A stretch of 64,000 nucleotides of DNA from Thermoplasmata archaeon (GCA_023269235.1 JAHFTW010000003.1:165999-229998); one strand, 5' to 3'. Positions 1,462 through 46,242 are shown, counted from the first letter of the stretch. The notes: a model not told the origin generated them from the letters alone. Translations and numbers: made by a program.

Positions 1462-2019
1462 TCAGGCGGGAAGGTCGAGCGGCACCGGCGCCACTTGCTC
1501 CGGGTCCACGGCCAGCTCGGCGGCGAGGGCGTCATGCAGCGCGCGAATCTTGCGCCACGCCTCGGGCAGCCCCTTGGAACGATACTTCTCCTCGACCTGC
1601 CGAAGCGTCATCCGCTTGTCGCCGGAGTAGAGGTTGTCGGCGTGGCAGACGATGCGCTCCTCCAACGAGACGGGCGTGTAGTCCTTCACGGGGAGTCCCA
1701 GTCTCGAGGCCTCCAAGGCGTCAATGCCGCCGCCCGTGTGCCGCTCGACGATGAGGACGACCGCGGGGTCCCACTCCTCCGTCCGCAGCAGTTCCGCGCC
1801 AAGCCCCGCGTGACGGACGTCCTGCGTGACGCTCCGGCCGATGTCGTGCAGGAGGGCCCCGGCGGCCACCCGCTCGCGGTCCACCGCGAGGCCGTTGCGT
1901 TCGGCCGCGTCGGCAAGGGCCACGGCGAGGCAGGCGACGCAGCGGCAGTGGCGCGGCACCCAAGCGGGCGGATTGGCCGCGAGCAGGCGGCGCCAACCGG
2001 CGTGGGCGAGCTCAGCCAT
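1462..2019 (-). CDS. HD-domain phosphohydrolase
   Basis: 'LLHDIGRSVT...HTGGG...VCHADNL' supplies the HD-superfamily His/Asp motifs. The start was taken at 'MAELAHAGW' (ATG 2019, in frame); the longer track ORF extends into an R/S-rich frame artefact. Confidence 0.7.
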   Translation of the reverse strand: MAELAHAGWRRLLAANPPAWVPRHCRCVACLAVALADAAERNGLAVDRERVAAGALLHDIGRSVTQDVRHAGLGAELLRTEEWDPAVVLIVERHTGGGIDALEASRLGLPVKDYTPVSLEERIVCHADNLYSGDKRMTLRQVEEKYRSKGLPEAWRKIRALHDALAAELAVDPEQVAPVPLDLPA

Positions 2020-2545
2020 GGCGCAAGGCGGGCTCGAGCTCGACGCGGCGCGCCTCGAGCGCCTGCCGCACCTCCGCGCCGTCGAGCGGCTCCATCGGCT
2101 TGTGGCAGACGGGGCACTTGAACTGGATGTCGATGGCGTCCTCGAAGAGGATGCGGCGGTGCCGGTCGGGGCACGCGTAGAACTCGTGGTCCTCCTCGAA
2201 CTTGAGCTGCTTCTCGATGTGCAGCAGCTCATCCGCCCAGCGGCGGCGCAGGATGTGGCGGATCTCCTCGAGGTCGAGGTCCCAGTAGAAGGTCTCCCAG
2301 CCCTTGGAGTCGGTGTCCTTCTCGTACTCGGCGGCGTGGGCTTCCATGAGGCGGTAGAGCGCCTTGCGGACCGCGCTCGCCTTGCGCTCCTTGAACGAGT
2401 CGAGGATGTCCACGCCGGAGACGTGCGGGTGGTCGCGCAGGTGGCGCGCGAGCTCAAGGCCCTCCTCGCCGGCCTCCTCAATGATGTAGCCGCGGACCTC
2501 GGGGTCGTCCAGGGAGGGCTTCCAGTCGGGGCCGCGGACGTGCAT
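2012..2545 (-). CDS. tfe: Transcription factor E (TFE, TFIIE-alpha homolog)
   Basis: An N-terminal winged helix ('VRGYIIEEAGEEGLELARHL...SFKERKASAVRKALYRLME') is followed by a 'CP..C..CPVC' zinc ribbon, the archaeal TFE architecture. Confidence 0.85.
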   Translation of the reverse strand: MHVRGPDWKPSLDDPEVRGYIIEEAGEEGLELARHLRDHPHVSGVDILDSFKERKASAVRKALYRLMEAHAAEYEKDTDSKGWETFYWDLDLEEIRHILRRRWADELLHIEKQLKFEEDHEFYACPDRHRRILFEDAIDIQFKCPVCHKPMEPLDGAEVRQALEARRVELEPALRHG

Positions 2546-2589: not shown

Positions 2590-3156
2590 CTATTCCTCGT
2601 CGTCGGGGGACAAGTCGGCTTCCTCGGCCGCGTCAAGGCCTTCGACCCGCTTGCCGCGCGCGGTCGGGATGACGCGCAGGGCGGCCCCCGCGAAGGCGTC
2701 GGCCTCCCAGGCCCCGCCGCGCAGGCGGTCGAGCAGGAGGGCGAGCGCCGCGACCTCGGAGTGCGGCTGCGAGCCGACGGCGACGTTCCAGTCCGCCAGG
2801 TCGTACAACTCGCTCGGGACCTTCTCGGCGCCGACGACGACGAGGGTGTCGCGCCCGCTCGCGCGGATGGCGGGCGTGGCCTCCCCAAGCGGGAGGCCAT
2901 ACATCGTGAGGTGGACCACTTGGCCGCCGGCCTTCTTCCAGGCGTTGATGGGGCCCTTCCACCCCGTGCCGGAGGCGACGGTGAAGCCGCCGCCGAAGCG
3001 GTCGGCGACGGAGCGGACGGTGCGCTCGACCCCGGTGTCCTCCTCCGCGATGGAGGCCGCGGCGGCGCCAAGGGCGCGGGCCGTCAAGCAGACGTGCGTC
3101 GTGATGCGCTTGTCGCGTGCCGGGCGGTGGCCGAGGCGGAGCACCTCGATGCGCAC
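2590..3156 (-). CDS. trm56: tRNA (cytidine56-2'-O)-methyltransferase aTrm56
   Basis: 'MRIEVLRLGHRPARDKRITTHVCLTARALGA' is the hallmark SPOUT N-terminus of aTrm56, and the ~188 aa length matches. Confidence 0.85.
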   Translation of the reverse strand: MRIEVLRLGHRPARDKRITTHVCLTARALGAAAASIAEEDTGVERTVRSVADRFGGGFTVASGTGWKGPINAWKKAGGQVVHLTMYGLPLGEATPAIRASGRDTLVVVGAEKVPSELYDLADWNVAVGSQPHSEVAALALLLDRLRGGAWEADAFAGAALRVIPTARGKRVEGLDAAEEADLSPDDEE

Positions 3157-3157
3157 C

Positions 3158-3826
3158 TCACGGCCTCCGCAGGTCCACCGTGACGGAGAGGCGCTGGCCG
3201 TCCTGGCAGGGGAGGGCGTCGCGCAGGCGGACCGGCGCGATAAGCTCGAGCGTGGTGGTGTAGTGGCTGCGGTGCGGCAGGATGGCGGCAGCCGACTGGC
3301 CCCCCACGCTGGCGGGCAGGCAGGAGACGGCGCCGAACGTGCGCCCCTCGGCGGTGAACGCCTCGATGGTGTGCGTCGCGTTGCGGCGCATCATCTCTAG
3401 CTTCGCGGCCCCCGACTCGCCGACGTCGAGGTTGAGCGTCCCGGGGAACGGCTCCCACCCAAGCTTCGCCTTGAACTGGGCCACGTACCCGGGGCGGGAG
3501 ATGTAGTAGCGCCCCTCGCCGAGGCCGGCCTTGACGGCGCCCACGAGCGTCACCTGCGCGGGGGCGCCGAAGAGACGCTGGTACACGAGATGCTCCGCCT
3601 CGAGGACGCCGCGGCCCTTGGGCGTGATGCGCAGGCGCTGTTTGCGCACGCTCATCTCGCGCCCGACGAGGCCCGCCTCGGCGAGCTCGATGAGGCGGCG
3701 GCTCGCGCTCTGCTGCGACAGTTCCAGGAGGCCGGCGAACTGCGCGCTCGCGAGCTCGACGGGCCCGTCCAACGCCCCGAGCAAGGCCAATTGTTTCAGC
3801 GCCTCCACGTCGAGCGGCCGGGTCAC
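3158..3826 (-). CDS. ribK: CTP-dependent riboflavin kinase with N-terminal HTH domain
   Basis: An N-terminal wHTH ('ASRRLIELAEAGLV') is followed by the archaeal riboflavin kinase core ('GTLNLDV...PHRSHYTTTLEL'). The start overlaps the stop of the upstream gene. Confidence 0.8.
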   Translation of the reverse strand: MTRPLDVEALKQLALLGALDGPVELASAQFAGLLELSQQSASRRLIELAEAGLVGREMSVRKQRLRITPKGRGVLEAEHLVYQRLFGAPAQVTLVGAVKAGLGEGRYYISRPGYVAQFKAKLGWEPFPGTLNLDVGESGAAKLEMMRRNATHTIEAFTAEGRTFGAVSCLPASVGGQSAAAILPHRSHYTTTLELIAPVRLRDALPCQDGQRLSVTVDLRRP

Positions 3827-5775
3827 GGCCGCGCCGACGCGGGAGGGCCCCTTAACCTGCGCGGCGCCGTGCCTGGCGCGGACGGGTCGGCCCGGAACAC
3901 CGCGAGCAACTCGTCGTACAGGGCCTTGTCCGCCCCTTTCGCGGTGGCGGCGAGACGCTGCACGATGAACTCGGGCGTGCTCCGGGCAAGGTGCCCGATG
4001 CGCGGCATGCGGTCCACGACGAGCCGGTTGTGCTCGTCCAGTCCCGACGCCTCGATGCCGTCCACGCGGACGGGGGCCGTCGTGTGGCGAAGGATGTGCG
4101 GCGCCATGTGGGTGACGACGATGGCGAGGCTGTCGGTGCGCGCCAGGCGGTCGAGGAAGAAGCCGAGGATGCGGCCGGCGGCCTCCAGCTCCGTGACCGA
4201 TTCCACTTCGTCGGCGAGGACGAGGCGGCGGACGCGGCCCTGCGCGAGCGGGAGGAAGGTGCGCAGGAACGACTCGAAGGCGCCGGCGTCGAGGCTACGG
4301 CGCGAGGTGAGGAAATGAATCTCTTCGACCCAGGGGACCTGCGCCCCGGCGCCGACCACGGGGAGCCCGAGGCGCGCCATGAGGGTGAGCTGGGCGACAT
4401 GCTCGAGCAGGGTGGTCTTGCCGCCGGAGTTGGCGCCCGTGAGGAGGGCGACGGTCTCGGTGCCTCCGAGATGGTACGCGATGCGCTGGGCGTCGGCGCG
4501 CTCCGCGAGGTCGAGGTGGACCGACGCATCGAAGGCCAGGGTCTCGGACCAGCCGAAGGGGCGAAGGTCGCAGGCGAGCGCGAAGCAGCCGAGCGCGAAC
4601 GGAGCGTCGAAGGCCTGCCACTCGGCGACGTCGGCCTCGACGGCGGGCCGCAACATCGCGAGGCGCTTGGCGAGCTTGGCGAGGGCAAGGTAATGGTCCT
4701 GCGCGGCCCGGGCGGAACCGTCGCGCTCGACGCGTTCCAGCTCCTCCTCGTCGAGGGCCAGCGGAATCGTGGAGGTGAACGGTTGGATGGCGAGGCCGGT
4801 GCGCTCCCGGGCCAAGGTCTTGGATTCGGCGAGCGTCTGGTCGAGCGCGGCCTTGACGCCGGCGGGGAGTTTGCGGCCGAGGCTCTCCAGAAGCTCCTGC
4901 CCCGTGATGGAGAGGGAGGCAACGCGTTCCTGGAGCCGGGCCTGCGACTCCTTCAGGAGCGCCTCGAGGGCCTTGCGCGCAGCGAGCGGGTTCACAGGCG
5001 GCGTCGGGCGTTGGGCAAGCACGGAGAGCGCCTGCGCGCTGGGGGAGGCCTTGCCAAGCGTGTCTGCGAGGCCGGCGCACGACTCGAGGACGGGGCGGTT
5101 CGTCTCGAACCACGCAAGCACCGATTCGGGGGCGGCCTGGTCGAGTAGCGGGCGGGGCCCGATCTCGAGAACGTTGGGCAGGTTGCCGGCCTCGTTCTCG
5201 CCATCGCAGGAGAGGAGGACCAACTCCATGTCGCTGGACTGGTGGAGGTCGCTCCCGCCTCCGACTTGGGCCCAGCGGTTGACGCCGAGCTTGACGAGCC
5301 GGTCCTGGCCCTCGCCGTCGAGGGCGACCACGAGGCGGGTCGGGTCGAAGCGGGCGGTGGGCTCGGCGAGCGGGCGGATGGCGCGCAGCAGGCGGCGGAT
5401 GCGGTCGCGGTCGAGCCCGGCGACCCGTGCCTTCTGCTCAAGGACCCAGGCCACGTGGCGCGTGGCGGCCTCGGGCGTCGGCTGGGGGACGAGGAGCTTG
5501 ATGCGGCTGCGGCCGGACGCCGTCGCGGCGAAGCCTGCGGCCTTCTCCAGGACCGCGTCCAGGATGGCGCGGGCCTGCGGCGTGGCCGCGAACGCGTCGG
5601 CGTCGTCGCCGCGCGCCTTGCGCACGAGCTCCATCGCCTTGCGTTCGCTGAGCCCCTCGACTTTGGCGAGGCTCGCGAGGTCGCCTTGGTCGATGGCGGC
5701 CTGGGCGCGGGCCTCGTCCTTGAAATGGCGCACGAGGGCGTCGCGCAGCTTGGGCGGGGCAAGGAGGGCGCTCAC
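3823..5775 (-). CDS. mutS2: MutS2-family ATPase (archaeal type, no Smr domain seen)
   Basis: The C-terminal ABC ATPase reads 'LLTGANSGGKTTLLEHV...LVLADE...VVTHM' (Walker A, Walker B and signature) in the MutS domain V pattern. The start was taken at GTG 5775, which overlaps the TGA of the upstream gene (GTGA). The track's extra 190 aa N-terminus is an R/P-rich overlap artefact. No Smr domain is visible at the C-terminus. Confidence 0.75.
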   Translation of the reverse strand: MSALLAPPKLRDALVRHFKDEARAQAAIDQGDLASLAKVEGLSERKAMELVRKARGDDADAFAATPQARAILDAVLEKAAGFAATASGRSRIKLLVPQPTPEAATRHVAWVLEQKARVAGLDRDRIRRLLRAIRPLAEPTARFDPTRLVVALDGEGQDRLVKLGVNRWAQVGGGSDLHQSSDMELVLLSCDGENEAGNLPNVLEIGPRPLLDQAAPESVLAWFETNRPVLESCAGLADTLGKASPSAQALSVLAQRPTPPVNPLAARKALEALLKESQARLQERVASLSITGQELLESLGRKLPAGVKAALDQTLAESKTLARERTGLAIQPFTSTIPLALDEEELERVERDGSARAAQDHYLALAKLAKRLAMLRPAVEADVAEWQAFDAPFALGCFALACDLRPFGWSETLAFDASVHLDLAERADAQRIAYHLGGTETVALLTGANSGGKTTLLEHVAQLTLMARLGLPVVGAGAQVPWVEEIHFLTSRRSLDAGAFESFLRTFLPLAQGRVRRLVLADEVESVTELEAAGRILGFFLDRLARTDSLAIVVTHMAPHILRHTTAPVRVDGIEASGLDEHNRLVVDRMPRIGHLARSTPEFIVQRLAATAKGADKALYDELLAVFRADPSAPGTAPRRLRGPPASARP

Positions 5776-6344
5776 GCGGCCACTTCCCAAAGCGAACGAT
5801 TGTCGGGGTCCTGGGCAAGCGTGTCGTTGCCGGGGTCCACGGCGATGCGGCGCTCGGGCTTGAGGGCGTAGCCGTCGTCCAAGTGGTAGACCTGGAAGTA
5901 CTGGCGTTCGAGGACGCGGCCGGTGGCCTTGTGCTTGCGTGACTGGCCGCCGACCCAGCGCCAGATCTCGACGGAGTCGTAGAGCGGGTCCCACGGCACT
6001 TCGTCCATTTCTTTCCGCTTTCGTCCGATGCCGGAATCGGCGGTGACCTGGATCCAGCGGGTGCGCTGGGCGCGTTTCTTGGCGACGAGGTCGATGCAGC
6101 CGAAGACGTCGTTGGACTGGCTGACCCAGAACGGTCCCCGTTTGGCGCCGGTGCGGACGCAGCGGTGCACCTTGTAGCCCTCGGCCTCGAGCAGCTTGAT
6201 GGCCATCAGCTCGACATGGGCCCCCTTCGTGCTGGTGTTGATGCGGCGCTTGCGTTTTGCGGGGCCCGCCGTCGCGGCGGGGGCGTCGGGAGGGGGGACG
6301 ACGACCGTCTTCGGGGGCAGGGGATAGGTCGGGTCGAGCGGCAC
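5772..6344 (-). CDS. PD-(D/E)XK-fold, Hjc-like nuclease-domain protein with a Pro/Lys-rich N-terminal tail
   Basis: 'HVELMAIKLLEAEGYKVHRCVRTG...FGCIDLVAKKR...WIQVT' aligns to the Hjc resolvase core (E...D...E-x-K). The final E-x-K position appears to read Q-V-T. It is translationally coupled to mutS2 through the GTGA overlap. Confidence 0.55.
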   Translation of the reverse strand: MPLDPTYPLPPKTVVVPPPDAPAATAGPAKRKRRINTSTKGAHVELMAIKLLEAEGYKVHRCVRTGAKRGPFWVSQSNDVFGCIDLVAKKRAQRTRWIQVTADSGIGRKRKEMDEVPWDPLYDSVEIWRWVGGQSRKHKATGRVLERQYFQVYHLDDGYALKPERRIAVDPGNDTLAQDPDNRSLWEVAA

Positions 6345-6634
6345 GCTCCGTCATGGGAGGGCCTGCGGAAGGGCTCTTCCAGGGGTTGAGTAAAACTACG
6401 CAGAAACGTCCCTTGATGACGCAATCGGGAAGCCTCTAAATCCTCAGCCCGCCATAGTATGGACGCGTGCCTGACGCACTCCGTCGCGCACTCACGGCCC
6501 GGACGGACCACCCCTCCCGGCCGCCGTTGTCTGGAGCAGGGAGCATGCCTCTGGTGCACAAGCCTCCCTCCCTGCCCCTCCCCGCGCGCAAGCGCCCCTT
6601 GACCCCCTTGGCCCACATCCTGTGAGGCAAACCC

Positions 6635-7414
6635 ATGAACGTCCGAGATGTCATGACCACGGTGCTCGTCACCGTCGGCAAGGACCGCAACCTGAAGGAA
6701 GTCCTGCACCTGATGGAGCAGAACCGCATCACCAAGCTCCCCGTCGTGGACGACTCCGGCAACCTGCTGGGCATCGTCACAGATGGCTGCATCGCCGACA
6801 AGCTCGGCCGGGAGCACAACAAGGGCATCCAGACCTCGACGCTGCATGCGTCGTCCGTCATGGAGAAGGATTTCCTCGTCGCCCATCCTGACGAGCCCCT
6901 CGCGGCGCTCCTCAAGGACGTCGGCAAGCCCGGGCTCACGATGGTCCCGGTCTGCCAGGGCAAGCGCCTGGTGGGCATCCTCACCAAGGCGGACCTGCTC
7001 AAGTTCGTCAAGTCCGACGCCGCGCTCTCCTCCTTCATGAAGAAGGAGCTGCGCTCGGTCTCCGCGGAAGAGCGGCTCATCCATGCGCGGCGCCTGCTCA
7101 TCGACCACGACATCGCGCGCCTTCCCGTGCTGCGCAACGGCAAGCTCGAGGGCATCATCGCCGAGCACGAGATCGCCGGCGCCTTCGCCGACCTGAAGCA
7201 GGCCGACGCCCACGTCCAGCGCGTCAACCTGCGCGACCTGCAAGTGGGCCCCTACATGCGCCGCAAGGTCGTCACGGGACGCCCCGAGATGTCGGCCAAG
7301 GAGGCTGCCGCCGTCATGCTGAAGGAGCACGTCGGCGCGCTCCCCATCGTGGATGGTTCTGGCACCATCCAGGGCATCGTCACGCGCACCGACCTGATTC
7401 GCACCTTCGCCTAG
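6635..7414 (+). CDS. CBS-domain protein (four tandem CBS repeats)
   Basis: Repeated 'VMT..LVTV...ITKLPVVDD.GNLLGIVT' and '...IARLPVL..GKLEGIIAEH' units; no other domain is present. Confidence 0.8.
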   Translation: MNVRDVMTTVLVTVGKDRNLKEVLHLMEQNRITKLPVVDDSGNLLGIVTDGCIADKLGREHNKGIQTSTLHASSVMEKDFLVAHPDEPLAALLKDVGKPGLTMVPVCQGKRLVGILTKADLLKFVKSDAALSSFMKKELRSVSAEERLIHARRLLIDHDIARLPVLRNGKLEGIIAEHEIAGAFADLKQADAHVQRVNLRDLQVGPYMRRKVVTGRPEMSAKEAAAVMLKEHVGALPIVDGSGTIQGIVTRTDLIRTFA

Positions 7415-43358: not shown

Positions 43359-44040
43359 CGCACGAGGTTCGATTCTCCAGGCGGCGCTTCGCGCCGCCCC
43401 CAACGATTCACTCTGGCATCCAGCCGTTGAAGGGGACGACGCCGTCGGAGGACGTCGGGGATGCCTCGGAGGGTTTGGCGAACCGACGCATCGAATCGTT
43501 CGATGACGAAGCGATGCCCAGGGTGGAAGTCGAATCTGCGTCATTCTGGCGGGGCCTTGGCTGGACTGTTCGATGTCGCCAGAATCGAGCACGAAGACAT
43601 CTGCTGAATCTGAGTTCCTGGTCGTCGGAGTCCGTCGGCCTCGCTTTTCGCAATCGCGCCGCACGTTTCTGCGCAATCCGTGGCGATTCTCCGCCAACTT
43701 CATGAACCACTGCTTGTCATGGTTCGTCCCGTGAGCACCTTGCTCTACCATCCCATGCCGATGCGCATGTGGGGCGGTAGCAAGATGCTCCCCATTTTTG
43801 TCGGCAAGTGCACGTAGGTTCCCTTCGTTGCCCTTGCTGGCGTCGAAGGTGAGCCCTGATGATGTACCAGCCCAAGCTATCCAACACCCCGCACGGCCTT
43901 CCCGCCGCCCCCTCGTTCCAGAGCCAGCTCCGTCAGGTCCGCGTCGTGCGGCCCGTGGCGGTCGTGAGCGTCCTCGGCGTCGCCGACGCGGACGTGGTCC
44001 CGTTGGGGGCGGAGGATTGAGCGACGAGCCCACCCGGCAG

Positions 44041-44589
44041 GACGTTCCTGCCCAAAGCACCCGACGGCGCCCCGAGCGCCCCGAGGTCATCCGGGAGATT
44101 CGCCTCCCGGCCGCCGCCGCCGACGGCGCCAACGGCGTCGCCACGCCGGCGCGGCGCAGGCTCGGCACGCTGTATCTGCTGACGTTGCTTTCGACGGTGG
44201 ACGGCTCGCTTCTGCTGCTGTCCGCGAGCGGCCAGCTCGACTCCTTGGGCGGCGCGCTCGCTGTCGGCCTCACGGTCATCGCGGGCGCCGGCTCCTGGCT
44301 CGCGGCGCGGCAGGCCTTCCAGGGCTGCCGCGGCGTTGGCGACTGGGCCGCGCTCGGTGTTCTGGGCCTGCTGACTCTTGCGGCCACGGCCGCGGCGGTC
44401 TGGCTCGGATCCACGCTTGGCTCGGCGCTGACGCTGCACGTGCTGCCGAAGGCGACCGGGGTCGTCCTGCTGCTCGTGGCGGCCGACATCGGCGGCCTGC
44501 GCGTCCCACGCCTGCGCGGCGTCCCGCTGCCCGTCGCGGTCGTGGCCTGCGCGGGCGTCCTCGAGGCGGTGGCGCAGTGGATTCGTTGA
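44041..44589 (+). CDS. Membrane protein (start uncertain)
   Basis: Hydrophobic helices 'LGTLYLLTLLSTVDGSLLLL', 'ALAVGLTVIAGAGSWLAA' and 'LGVLGLLTLAATAAAVWLG'. No ATG is available and the start was placed arbitrarily within the ORF 43798..44589. Confidence 0.3.
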   Translation, partial: DVPAQSTRRRPERPEVIREIRLPAAAADGANGVATPARRRLGTLYLLTLLSTVDGSLLLLSASGQLDSLGGALAVGLTVIAGAGSWLAARQAFQGCRGVGDWAALGVLGLLTLAATAAAVWLGSTLGSALTLHVLPKATGVVLLLVAADIGGLRVPRLRGVPLPVAVVACAGVLEAVAQWIR

Positions 44590-44834
44590 TCGGCGCCCTC
44601 GTCGCGGCCGCGGTGGCGTGGCTCAGCATCGTCGCGGCCGCGGTCTTCCCCGTGCCGCTCGACCTCGGCTGGCTGCGCCGCCTGGGCGCCGTGAGCCTCG
44701 CGCTCCTCGGCATCCTCGCGCTCGGCGCCCCGGTCCCCGGCTGGCTCCCGCTCGCCGTATTGGGCCTCGGCCTCGCGGCGGCGATGGTGAGTCCGTTCCT
44801 GCGCCGGCCCGACGGCCGGGGCATGGTGCCTTGA
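44577..44834 (+). CDS. Small membrane protein (2-3 TM)
   Basis: GTG start with a 13 nt overlap with the previous ORF; 'LIGALVAAAVAWLSIVAAAVFPV...LLGILALGAPV'. It could instead be a C-terminal piece of the upstream protein. Confidence 0.3.
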   Translation: MDSLIGALVAAAVAWLSIVAAAVFPVPLDLGWLRRLGAVSLALLGILALGAPVPGWLPLAVLGLGLAAAMVSPFLRRPDGRGMVP

Positions 44835-44910
44835 CCGAGCGCTGCCCCAGTAGGGCCCTGGTGAAAGGCGGCCGCGACACCCCTAAGTAGGGGGCACCCA
44901 AGTTGCGGCC

Positions 44911-46242
44911 GTGGGGCTTCCGACCGTCGTGCTGGGCTTCGTCGAAGGCGGCGCCTATCTGGCGCTCTCCGCCTGGATCGTCTGGCTCGGACCCGGCCGC
45001 GGCCTGCACCGCGCCCTCTTCCTTCTCCTCTTCTTCCTCGGCCTGAATGCCATCCTCCACGCGGTCACGCTCGTGGATTTCGCGTCCAAGGGGACCGCCG
45101 TGGGACTGGCCGACCGCTTGCAGACCTACGTCAAGTTGGCCCTCCCGTTCGCGGCCGCGGCGACGGGGGTCGAGTTTCTGCACGGCCACGGCCGGCCCCT
45201 GCGCGCCTCCGTCCGCGCGGGCATCCACCTTGCGTTGACGCTCGCCGCCAGCGCCCTCCTGGCCGCCAACCTCCTTGACCGCTCCCTGGTCCACGACGGC
45301 GCCTTCACCACCGGGCCGTTCGGGCCCCTTCTGTTCGCGGATCGGCTCGCCATGGCGGGCATCGCGGTGCTGCTGCTTGCCACGCCGCGCGGCGAGGACG
45401 CACGCACCATCCGGGTCGCGGCGGCCGCCTTCCTGATGGAGGCGGTCTACGCGTCGGCGCTTCTTCTCCGCAGCGGCGTCGCCATCTACGGCGTCCCGGG
45501 CTGGAACGGCTACGACACCTTGTCCTACCTCGTGGTGCCCGGCCTCGTCCTGGCCGCCGCCGCCCTCGCGGTCGTGTTCGCCTGGAGGCAGGACGCCACC
45601 CTCGGTCACCGCTACCTCGCCCTGGTCCTGTGCGCAGCGGGAACCTCGGTCCTCCTCGACGGCCTTCAGCGCCTCGCCGCGTTGTCGGGCACAGGCGGGT
45701 TCGCGGCCGCCCTCGGCGACCAGGCCTGGCCCGGCACCACGCTGGCCTTCCTGTGGGGCCTGGCGGGCGCCATCACGCTGGCCTACGCCGTCTTGCGCTG
45801 CCGTTTCCTGCGCGCCGAACTCACCGCGCGCAGCGTGTTCCGCGGCGGCGTCGCGGCGGCGGCCCTGACGGTCCTCTTCTTCGTTGCCGGCCAGGTCCTG
45901 GAGAGCCTGTTCAACGCCAACAGCCTCGTCCTCAACGTGGCGGCCGGCGCCGCCATCGCGATCGCCTTGTGGCCGGTGCAGCGCGGCACGGCCTACCTGG
46001 CGCATCGTCTCCTCGACCACGTCCAGGACACGCCAGAGTATCGTCGTGAACGGGGGCACGACATCTACCAGCACGCCGCCCGGGTCGCGTGGCGCGACGG
46101 ACGTGTCTCGGCCCAGGAACAGAGGGCGCTGGCGCGGCTGGGGGAGAGCCTTGAGATCTCTCCAAGCGAGATGAAGCGGCTGGAATCACGGGTTCGGGCA
46201 TTGCCCGGAAGCCAGTCGGCTGCCGTGGCGCAAGGCGCCTGA
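44911..46242 (+). CDS. Polytopic membrane protein with cytoplasmic C-terminal domain
   Basis: GTG start; about 9 TM helices. The C-terminal ~90 aa are hydrophilic ('YRRERGHDIYQHAARVAWRDGRVSAQEQRALARLGESL'). Confidence 0.55.
   Translation: MGLPTVVLGFVEGGAYLALSAWIVWLGPGRGLHRALFLLLFFLGLNAILHAVTLVDFASKGTAVGLADRLQTYVKLALPFAAAATGVEFLHGHGRPLRASVRAGIHLALTLAASALLAANLLDRSLVHDGAFTTGPFGPLLFADRLAMAGIAVLLLATPRGEDARTIRVAAAAFLMEAVYASALLLRSGVAIYGVPGWNGYDTLSYLVVPGLVLAAAALAVVFAWRQDATLGHRYLALVLCAAGTSVLLDGLQRLAALSGTGGFAAALGDQAWPGTTLAFLWGLAGAITLAYAVLRCRFLRAELTARSVFRGGVAAAALTVLFFVAGQVLESLFNANSLVLNVAAGAAIAIALWPVQRGTAYLAHRLLDHVQDTPEYRRERGHDIYQHAARVAWRDGRVSAQEQRALARLGESLEISPSEMKRLESRVRALPGSQSAAVAQGA

Follow-up and report, generated by a model that had tools for sequence, protein, structure and literature searches.

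A 64,000-nucleotide stretch of DNA from a Thermoplasmata archaeon (GCA_023269235.1 JAHFTW010000003.1:165999-229998; hereafter the window, with a GC content of about 70%) carries on its minus strand a small gene, here called gene A, whose stop codon overlaps the start codon of a gene for a MutS-type ATPase. We report that gene A is predicted to encode a PD-(D/E)XK protein of a family with an unusual conserved motif, Q-x-T, at the position of the canonical E-x-K, and that in one lineage of Thermoplasmatota it is associated with an archaeal MutS5-type protein; judged by the libraries searched and the accessible literature, both the family and the lineage-specific association are new. The protein reads MPLDPTYPLPPKTVVVPPPDAPAATAGPAKRKRRINTSTKGAHVELMAIKLLEAEGYKVHRC...IDLVAKK...RWIQVTADSG.... 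An initial annotation of the window had quoted the strings ELMAIKLLEAEGYKV, IDLV and WIQVT, all found in the gene A translation, as the core of a protein resembling the Holliday junction resolvase Hjc, placed behind a proline-rich, KRKRR-containing N-terminal tail, joined by a GTGA overlap to a "mutS2" gene and followed by ribK, trm56, tfe and a gene for an HD-domain hydrolase. The quoted strings, the tail, the overlap and the list of downstream genes are all correct (Table 1).

The assignment of gene A to the PD-(D/E)XK fold is secure. An AlphaFold run on close homologues only gave a pLDDT of 73; it was replaced by a run on 77 divergent members of the gene A family, 26-71% identical to the query, which also served to build the family profile. 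The resulting model has a mean pLDDT of 87.8, exceeding 95 in the core, and its elements follow in the order helix 37-54, strand 58-61, inserted hairpin 65-76, strands 86-89 and 95-101, helix 106-114 and strand 123-131, which fits the alpha-beta-beta-beta-alpha-beta core expected of PD-(D/E)XK proteins, with an acidic residue at the head of beta2 that faces beta3. In profile alignments with hhalign, the family profile matched Hjc of Pfu (1GEF, sequence verified) with a probability of 80.8% (E 1.3e-5) and a three-sequence Hjc profile with a probability of 76%, in agreement with the Hjc-like core first proposed. When the 77-member profile was searched against PDB sequences, Pfu and Sso Hjc were the best matches, below significance (E 0.09-1.4) and through the N-terminal motif only. 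Foldseek returned only PD-(D/E)XK folds. Its leading PDB matches were a Uma2-like protein (3IJM, the top match), the SPARDA nuclease domain, I-Ssp6803I, Bax1, the R2 endonuclease domain, Cas4, VRR-NUC and RecU; in BFVD, uncharacterised viral proteins came first (E 2e-7); next were Holliday junction resolvases, a putative one of the rudivirus SSRV1 and one of a Caudovirales phage (E 2e-4 to 3e-4), with VRR-NUC and RecU after them. Foldseek probabilities of the top matches ran up to 0.99-1.0. The viral Hjc-type and other PD-(D/E)XK resolvases of BFVD (SSRV1, VRR-NUC, RecU) are the best annotated structural matches to gene A (E 2e-4 to 4e-3), although their identity to it is 9-19% and the gene A motif is non-canonical.

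Hjc itself (PF01870; 1GEF, 1HH1, 2WCW) resembles the gene A protein in its small size, in its alpha1-beta1-beta2-beta3-alpha2-beta4 core, in the N-terminal motif K-G..E..L..G-[FY]-x-V-x-R and in a D-[LI]-[VI]-A strand. Gene A differs in its lack of a PF01870 match, in the replacement of E-x-K by an invariant Q-x-T, in the extra Pro-rich and basic tail, in a beta-hairpin of about 16 residues that is inserted between beta1 and beta2 and closes with an invariant S-x-S-N-D, and in a different C-terminal half (VEIWRWVGG). "Hjc-like" is used here for the nearest characterised neighbour of gene A and does not denote family membership.

Both profile alignments place gene A on Pfu Hjc in the same way: K40-G41 on K4-G5, E45 on E9, D85 on D33, Q99 on E46 and T101 on K48. 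Of the Hjc catalytic tetrad, E/D/E-x-K, gene A therefore retains E45 and D85, with Q99-V-T101 standing at E-x-K; the hand alignment in the initial annotation had arrived at the same Q-x-T, which holds across the family. Among the 77 divergent members, D79, D85 and Q99 are each present in 77/77, T101 in 71/77 and W128 in 73/77. Position 45 is Glu in 69 and Gln in 8, and E126 is kept in 64, with Gln in 7 more. D79, an extra invariant Asp of this family, sits just upstream of D85, and the same column counts contain no alternative conserved E-x-K. Throughout the family, then, Gln (invariant) and Thr (near-invariant) stand in for the second carboxylate and the Lys of E-x-K. Decayed sites drift, whereas these replacement residues are fixed across divergent members, and for this reason Q-x-T argues for a functional site and not decay, one of polar or metal-binding character with a non-canonical composition, two Asp plus one Gln. 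A Lys or Arg supplied by K40 or K109 possibly contributes to it.

Variant third motifs occur elsewhere in the superfamily: Mrr and HinP1I have Q-x-K, BglII has E-x-Q, and proteins of the Uma2/DUF820 group (3IJM type) are also variant. HinP1I and Mrr are active enzymes with Gln in the Glu position. Such enzymes are precedents both for a Gln where Glu is expected and for a missing Lys; to our knowledge, none pairs Gln with Thr. Family members from viral contigs in IMG/VR (L039-L058) often carry Gln at the E45 position as well, in the form K-G-x-x-F-Q-x-W, while the N-D, the D and Q-x-T are kept. Of the four canonical catalytic residues of Hjc, this viral branch lacks two and has a third changed to Gln.

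Gene A is a genuine gene under strong constraint, belonging to a separate family that is curated in none of the libraries searched, Pfam, NCBIfam and PHROGs included. The protein has no match in Pfam (PF01870 included, at E<=1), NCBIfam or PADLOC, a PHROGs scan yielded nothing usable, and phmmer against PDB sequences found nothing. PF01870 is also absent from the matches listed for the 77 family members, a few of which match Mrr_cat or UPF0102 weakly in the same library scan. A phmmer search with Pfu Hjc, run on all open reading frames (ORFs) in the 64 kb of the window and in the fetched loci with their flanks, found no canonical Hjc, which leaves room for one elsewhere in the genome. A 90%-clustered database holds 177 homologues of gene A; those with names are all "hypothetical protein", and those with organism labels come from Thermoplasmatota metagenome-assembled genomes (MAGs), except one labelled "bacterium". 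At 50% identity the family comprises about 309 cluster representatives, and cluster look-ups of its distant members returned no names. Its signature can be written K-G..E..(S-x-S-N-D)..D..Q-x-T..E-x-W.

The N-terminal tail sets some family members apart. In gene A it spans residues 1-39, with 10 prolines and KRKRR at 30-34, and in an alignment of the chromosomal copies it consists of a DPT[YF]P motif, a Pro/Ala-rich linker variable in length and sequence, and a basic patch, in that order. D4 and P5 of the motif are kept in at least 90% of these copies. The DPTYP tail is confined to gene A copies linked to a MutS gene and is missing from unlinked relatives such as P0122, P0125 and P0148. At the extreme N-terminus of the protein (window 6333-6344, residues 1-8), DPT[YF]P resembles a short docking motif.

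The 650-residue product of the gene overlapped by gene A has MutS_V as its sole Pfam match, at 22 bits, below the gathering score. In NCBIfam it matches part of the TIGR01069 (mutS2) model over residues 361-557 (E 4e-14), and in the PDB it matches MutS2 chains in the ATPase region only (7vuf, E 1.8e-6). Walker A and Walker B are intact. No Smr, KOW or MutS I-IV domain was detected with Pfam or NCBIfam, which bears out the earlier statement that this MutS homologue lacks Smr. The MutS2 label given to it fits less well. Bacterial MutS2 has the ATPase core that gives the best PDB and NCBIfam matches, and shares with the present locus the concept of a MutS-type ATPase with a small nuclease module; yet the score against TIGR01069 is 51.8 bits where the cut-off is 400, Smr and KOW are missing, and the candidate nuclease is a separate gene of unrelated fold. 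Over 95% of its length, the protein is 33-36% identical to Methanobacterium HHH_5+MutS_V proteins, which their sources name "MutS-related", "helix-hairpin-helix domain-containing" or "MutS2". This architecture, a helix-hairpin-helix (HhH) region with a MutS ATPase, was named the archaeal MutS5 subfamily, and a Pyrococcus "MutS2-like" protein was reclassified there (Lin et al., 2007; PMC2190696). With its MutS ATPase domain and without mismatch-binding domains or Smr, the downstream protein looks like this archaeal MutS5 type, a better label for it than MutS2. The assignment rests on homology to the Methanobacterium proteins and on the architecture. It differs from archaeal MutS5 proteins elsewhere in that, in the lineage linked to gene A, the MutS proteins end in a variable Pro-rich, basic C-terminal extension (window 3823-3885, residues ~630-650), which in the alignment is absent from the Methanobacterium orthologues and from other contigs without gene A.

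What archaeal MutS5 does in the cell is still open in two sources, which give Holliday junction binding in vitro and no known partner (PMC11276520; PMC7776575). Tight binding of Holliday junctions is reported for P. horikoshii MutS5 (Ohshita et al., 2017, as cited in PMC11276520), and for the MutS5 paralogues of Haloferax no involvement in mismatch repair is listed (PMC7776575). The accessible literature contains no report of an Hjc-like partner for MutS5, nor is a nuclease partner reported for it.

The association of the two genes is conserved within the lineage. Scanning a single genome for each GTDB species, we found 28 gene A loci, all in MAGs labelled Thermoplasmatota, Thermoplasmata or, probably by mislabelling, Halobacteriales or "bacterium". 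The MutS-type gene follows gene A directly in 27/28 of these species-level loci, and where the contig permits, ribK, trm56 and tfe then follow in the same order, with a divergent CBS-domain gene upstream. A four-base NTGA overlap joins gene A to mutS in 22/29 loci, most others having a 1-base overlap or a gap of 1-2 bases. Across the linked loci, identity is 62-83% for the gene A core, 40-72% for MutS, 54-82% for RibK and 65-85% for Trm56; the gene A core is thus kept more closely than MutS, in line with a functional site.

Most members of the gene A family, as their surroundings indicate, lie in virus-like or mobile-element-like DNA, and 21 IMG/VR viral contigs carry one. P0123 (57% identical to gene A) is found on a 50-kb contig (L061) of small, co-oriented, unannotated ORFs; P0122 (68% identical) is in a similar array (L064) that also encodes an ERCC4+HhH (XPF-type) nuclease; P0216 is in a virus-like array; and P0125 (L062) adjoins genes for MutH-like, NOV_C, DNA methylase and DEAD helicase proteins. 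These arrays (L061-L064) are probably uncharacterised archaeal viruses or plasmids. The tail-less relatives in L061, L062, L063 and L064 sit in long arrays with almost no Pfam or PHROG matches, and PHROG annotation of the neighbours in viral and virus-like DNA gave only a DNA methyltransferase, a radical SAM protein, a HicB-like protein and unknowns. In another contig (JBAZXE010000038.1, L035, from the same MAG as locus L018) there is a 137-residue paralogue, 37% identical to gene A and without the N-terminal tail. Two long integrase-like ORFs with a C-terminal zinc-ribbon precede it and DUF5131-like (Gp37/Gp68) and TcmP-like genes come after it (L035:3451-8848; all named by eye), and the region looks like an integrated mobile element.

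We consider a functional gene A-MutS5 pair acting on recombination intermediates to be the most likely mechanism, and we hold it tentatively. In this scheme one copy of the family would have gained a new N-terminal tail, the DPTYP motif with the basic patch, in a single high-GC Thermoplasmatota lineage, and the tailed copy would have become a fixed chromosomal gene at the head of an operon, directly before the mutS5-type gene and overlapping it. The two proteins would be produced together and would both act on branched or recombination-intermediate DNA, MutS5 contributing ATP-coupled junction binding, and gene A contributing structure-specific binding and probably metal-dependent cleavage through D79/D85/Q99. 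We favour it because the Hjc-like fold of gene A and the HhH region and reported junction binding of MutS5 all point to branched DNA, and because the tail of gene A and the extension of MutS are lineage-specific. The partnership itself is plausible.

Several observations weigh against it. Foldseek matches in the PDB have weak E-values (about 1e-2), with Hjc outside the 50 best. No active PD-(D/E)XK enzyme that has Thr for the catalytic Lys is known to us, and for that reason the gene A protein may be incapable of cutting DNA. The mutS stop and the ribK GTG start share a GTGA overlap too (3823-3826), ribK and trm56 are spaced by 1 nucleotide (3156-3158), and tfe and the HD gene overlap by 8 (2012-2019); overlap is a habit of the whole mixed-function operon and not particular to the gene A/mutS pair. 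Because the same GTGA joins mutS to the unrelated ribK, the junction at gene A reflects operon packing and not a complex: it points to co-transcription and probably to coupled translation, and is no evidence that the proteins bind each other. The pairing is confined to one high-GC Thermoplasmatota lineage. Three MutS5-type orthologues from outside it, in a Methanobacterium genome and two metagenomic contigs (35-40% identity), have no gene A nearby in a hidden Markov model search of six-frame ORFs; the linkage to mutS first proposed for this locus is thus conserved within the lineage and does not extend to these three. Relatives of gene A with as much as 68% identity occur outside the operon, in the virus-like or mobile DNA described above, with no MutS. 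Finally, the initial suggestion of a dedicated partner that could supply the nuclease module missing from MutS5 is unproven.

An alternative already raised in the initial annotation, which we consider possible but unlikely, is that gene A is a non-catalytic pseudo-nuclease, its Hjc-like fold used for recognition of branched DNA, or as an adaptor via the tail. Both residues of E-x-K are replaced (Q99, T101), in viral members E45 is Gln as well, and the basic patch of the tail would suit DNA binding. However, inactivated sites normally drift, and here the replacements and the two Asp are invariant across very divergent members, suggesting a metal or chemistry site. Moreover, compact viral genomes retain the protein, and Gln at the Glu position is found in the active enzymes HinP1I and Mrr. 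If gene A protein is inactive, it would be a conserved pseudo-nuclease common to archaeal viruses and hosts; if active, it would widen the known catalytic repertoire of PD-(D/E)XK proteins.

Independence of the two proteins, with gene A a stand-alone resolvase or nuclease, for example, obtained from or shared with viruses, and its adjacency to mutS an inherited feature of operon packing, is likewise improbable in our estimate. It would agree with the unrelated functions mixed in this operon and the overlapping or nearly overlapping mutS-ribK, ribK-trm56 and tfe-HD junctions, with the occurrence of MutS5 elsewhere without gene A and of gene A relatives without MutS, and with the origin of all linked loci in one lineage. 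Conversely, gene order and overlap persist down to 40% MutS identity, the lineage-specific tail co-occurs with MutS linkage, and both proteins are related to DNA-junction functions.

A more specific form of the functional pair, in which a virus-derived, lysine-less nuclease was domesticated as a dedicated subunit of MutS5 that both recognises and cuts junctions, recruited through the DPTYP/basic tail and working by a D-D-Q-x-T chemistry undescribed for PD-(D/E)XK enzymes, is doubtful as a whole. The direction of virus-host transfer is something that we only infer. Nucleases are found fused to other MutS families, Smr in MutS2 being an example. If true, the domesticated pair would parallel MutS2-Smr or MutS-gamma/MutL-gamma with two separate genes. 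More generally, a conserved junction-nuclease-like neighbour, with co-expression deduced from the operon, offers a testable hypothesis for the role and the partner of MutS5.

Two further readings were rejected. It is very improbable that the two proteins, an ABC-type ATPase and a small nuclease, make up an anti-virus defence system of the Septu, PARIS or Gabija kind: an ATPase with a nuclease would suit such a system, and gene A relatives occur in mobile elements, one beside MutH-like, NOV_C and methylase genes, but PADLOC gave nothing for gene A and P-loop-level noise for the MutS-type protein (E 0.04-0.07), the genes lie in every member of the lineage in a fixed core-genome operon with housekeeping genes and not in a variable island, and full-length orthology ties the ATPase to the widespread archaeal MutS5 type. 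Least credible of all is the reading named in the initial annotation as its refutation, that gene A is an ordinary Hjc whose E-x-K was misplaced by hand alignment, since the KG..E..L..G[FY].V.R and DLVA strings and the best PDB profile match (Pfu Hjc, E 0.09) are outweighed by the missing PF01870 and other Pfam or NCBIfam matches at E<=1, by the two profile alignments, in which Q99 and T101 fall on the columns of E and K, and by the absence of any other conserved E-x-K.

Table 1. Features of the gene A locus and its surroundings, in window positions
Feature	Position	Strand	Details and basis
Gene A	5772..6344	minus	GTG start, 190 amino acids; ORF reading
N-terminal tail of gene A, residues 1-39	6228..6344	minus	Alignment and composition
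Active-site columns of gene A	6042..6212	minus	Codons: E45 6210-6212, D79 6108-6110, D85 6090-6092, Q99 6048-6050, T101 6042-6044
GTGA junction	5772..5775	minus	Gene A TGA stop over GTG start of MutS-type gene; bases 5775..5772
MutS5-type ATPase	3823..5775	minus	650 amino acids, N-terminal HhH and MutS ABC-ATPase domain; Pfam, NCBIfam, PDB, homology
ATPase core, residues 427-559	4099..4497	minus	PDB match and motif reading
Walker A GANSGGKT, residues 447-454	4414-4437	minus	
Walker B LVLADE, residues 518-523	4207-4224	minus	
ribK, CTP-dependent riboflavin kinase with N-terminal helix-turn-helix	3158..3826	minus	Pfam PF01982
trm56, tRNA 2'-O-methyltransferase	2590..3156	minus	Pfam PF01994
tfe, TFE alpha	2012..2545	minus	Pfam PF02002
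HD-domain hydrolase	1462..2019	minus	Pfam PF01966
CBS-domain gene, divergent	6635-7414	plus	
Intergenic region between gene A and the divergent CBS gene	6345..6634	no strand	Presumed promoter region of the operon

An 843-residue ORF with an ATG start (3823..6354, minus) was considered as a gene and rejected; its first ~190 codons cross gene A out of frame, as a high-GC shadow. Spanning both genes, this shadow ORF is a high-GC artefact able to mislead gene callers. In Methanobacterium sp. ACI-7, a gene for a 173-residue zinc-ribbon protein lies 11 nucleotides after the MutS5-type gene (L036:6902-7423). Elsewhere in the window, an AT skew of -0.33 at 44001-46000 corresponds to a 443-residue hydrophobic membrane-protein ORF (44911..46242, plus) and reflects ordinary codon-composition bias.

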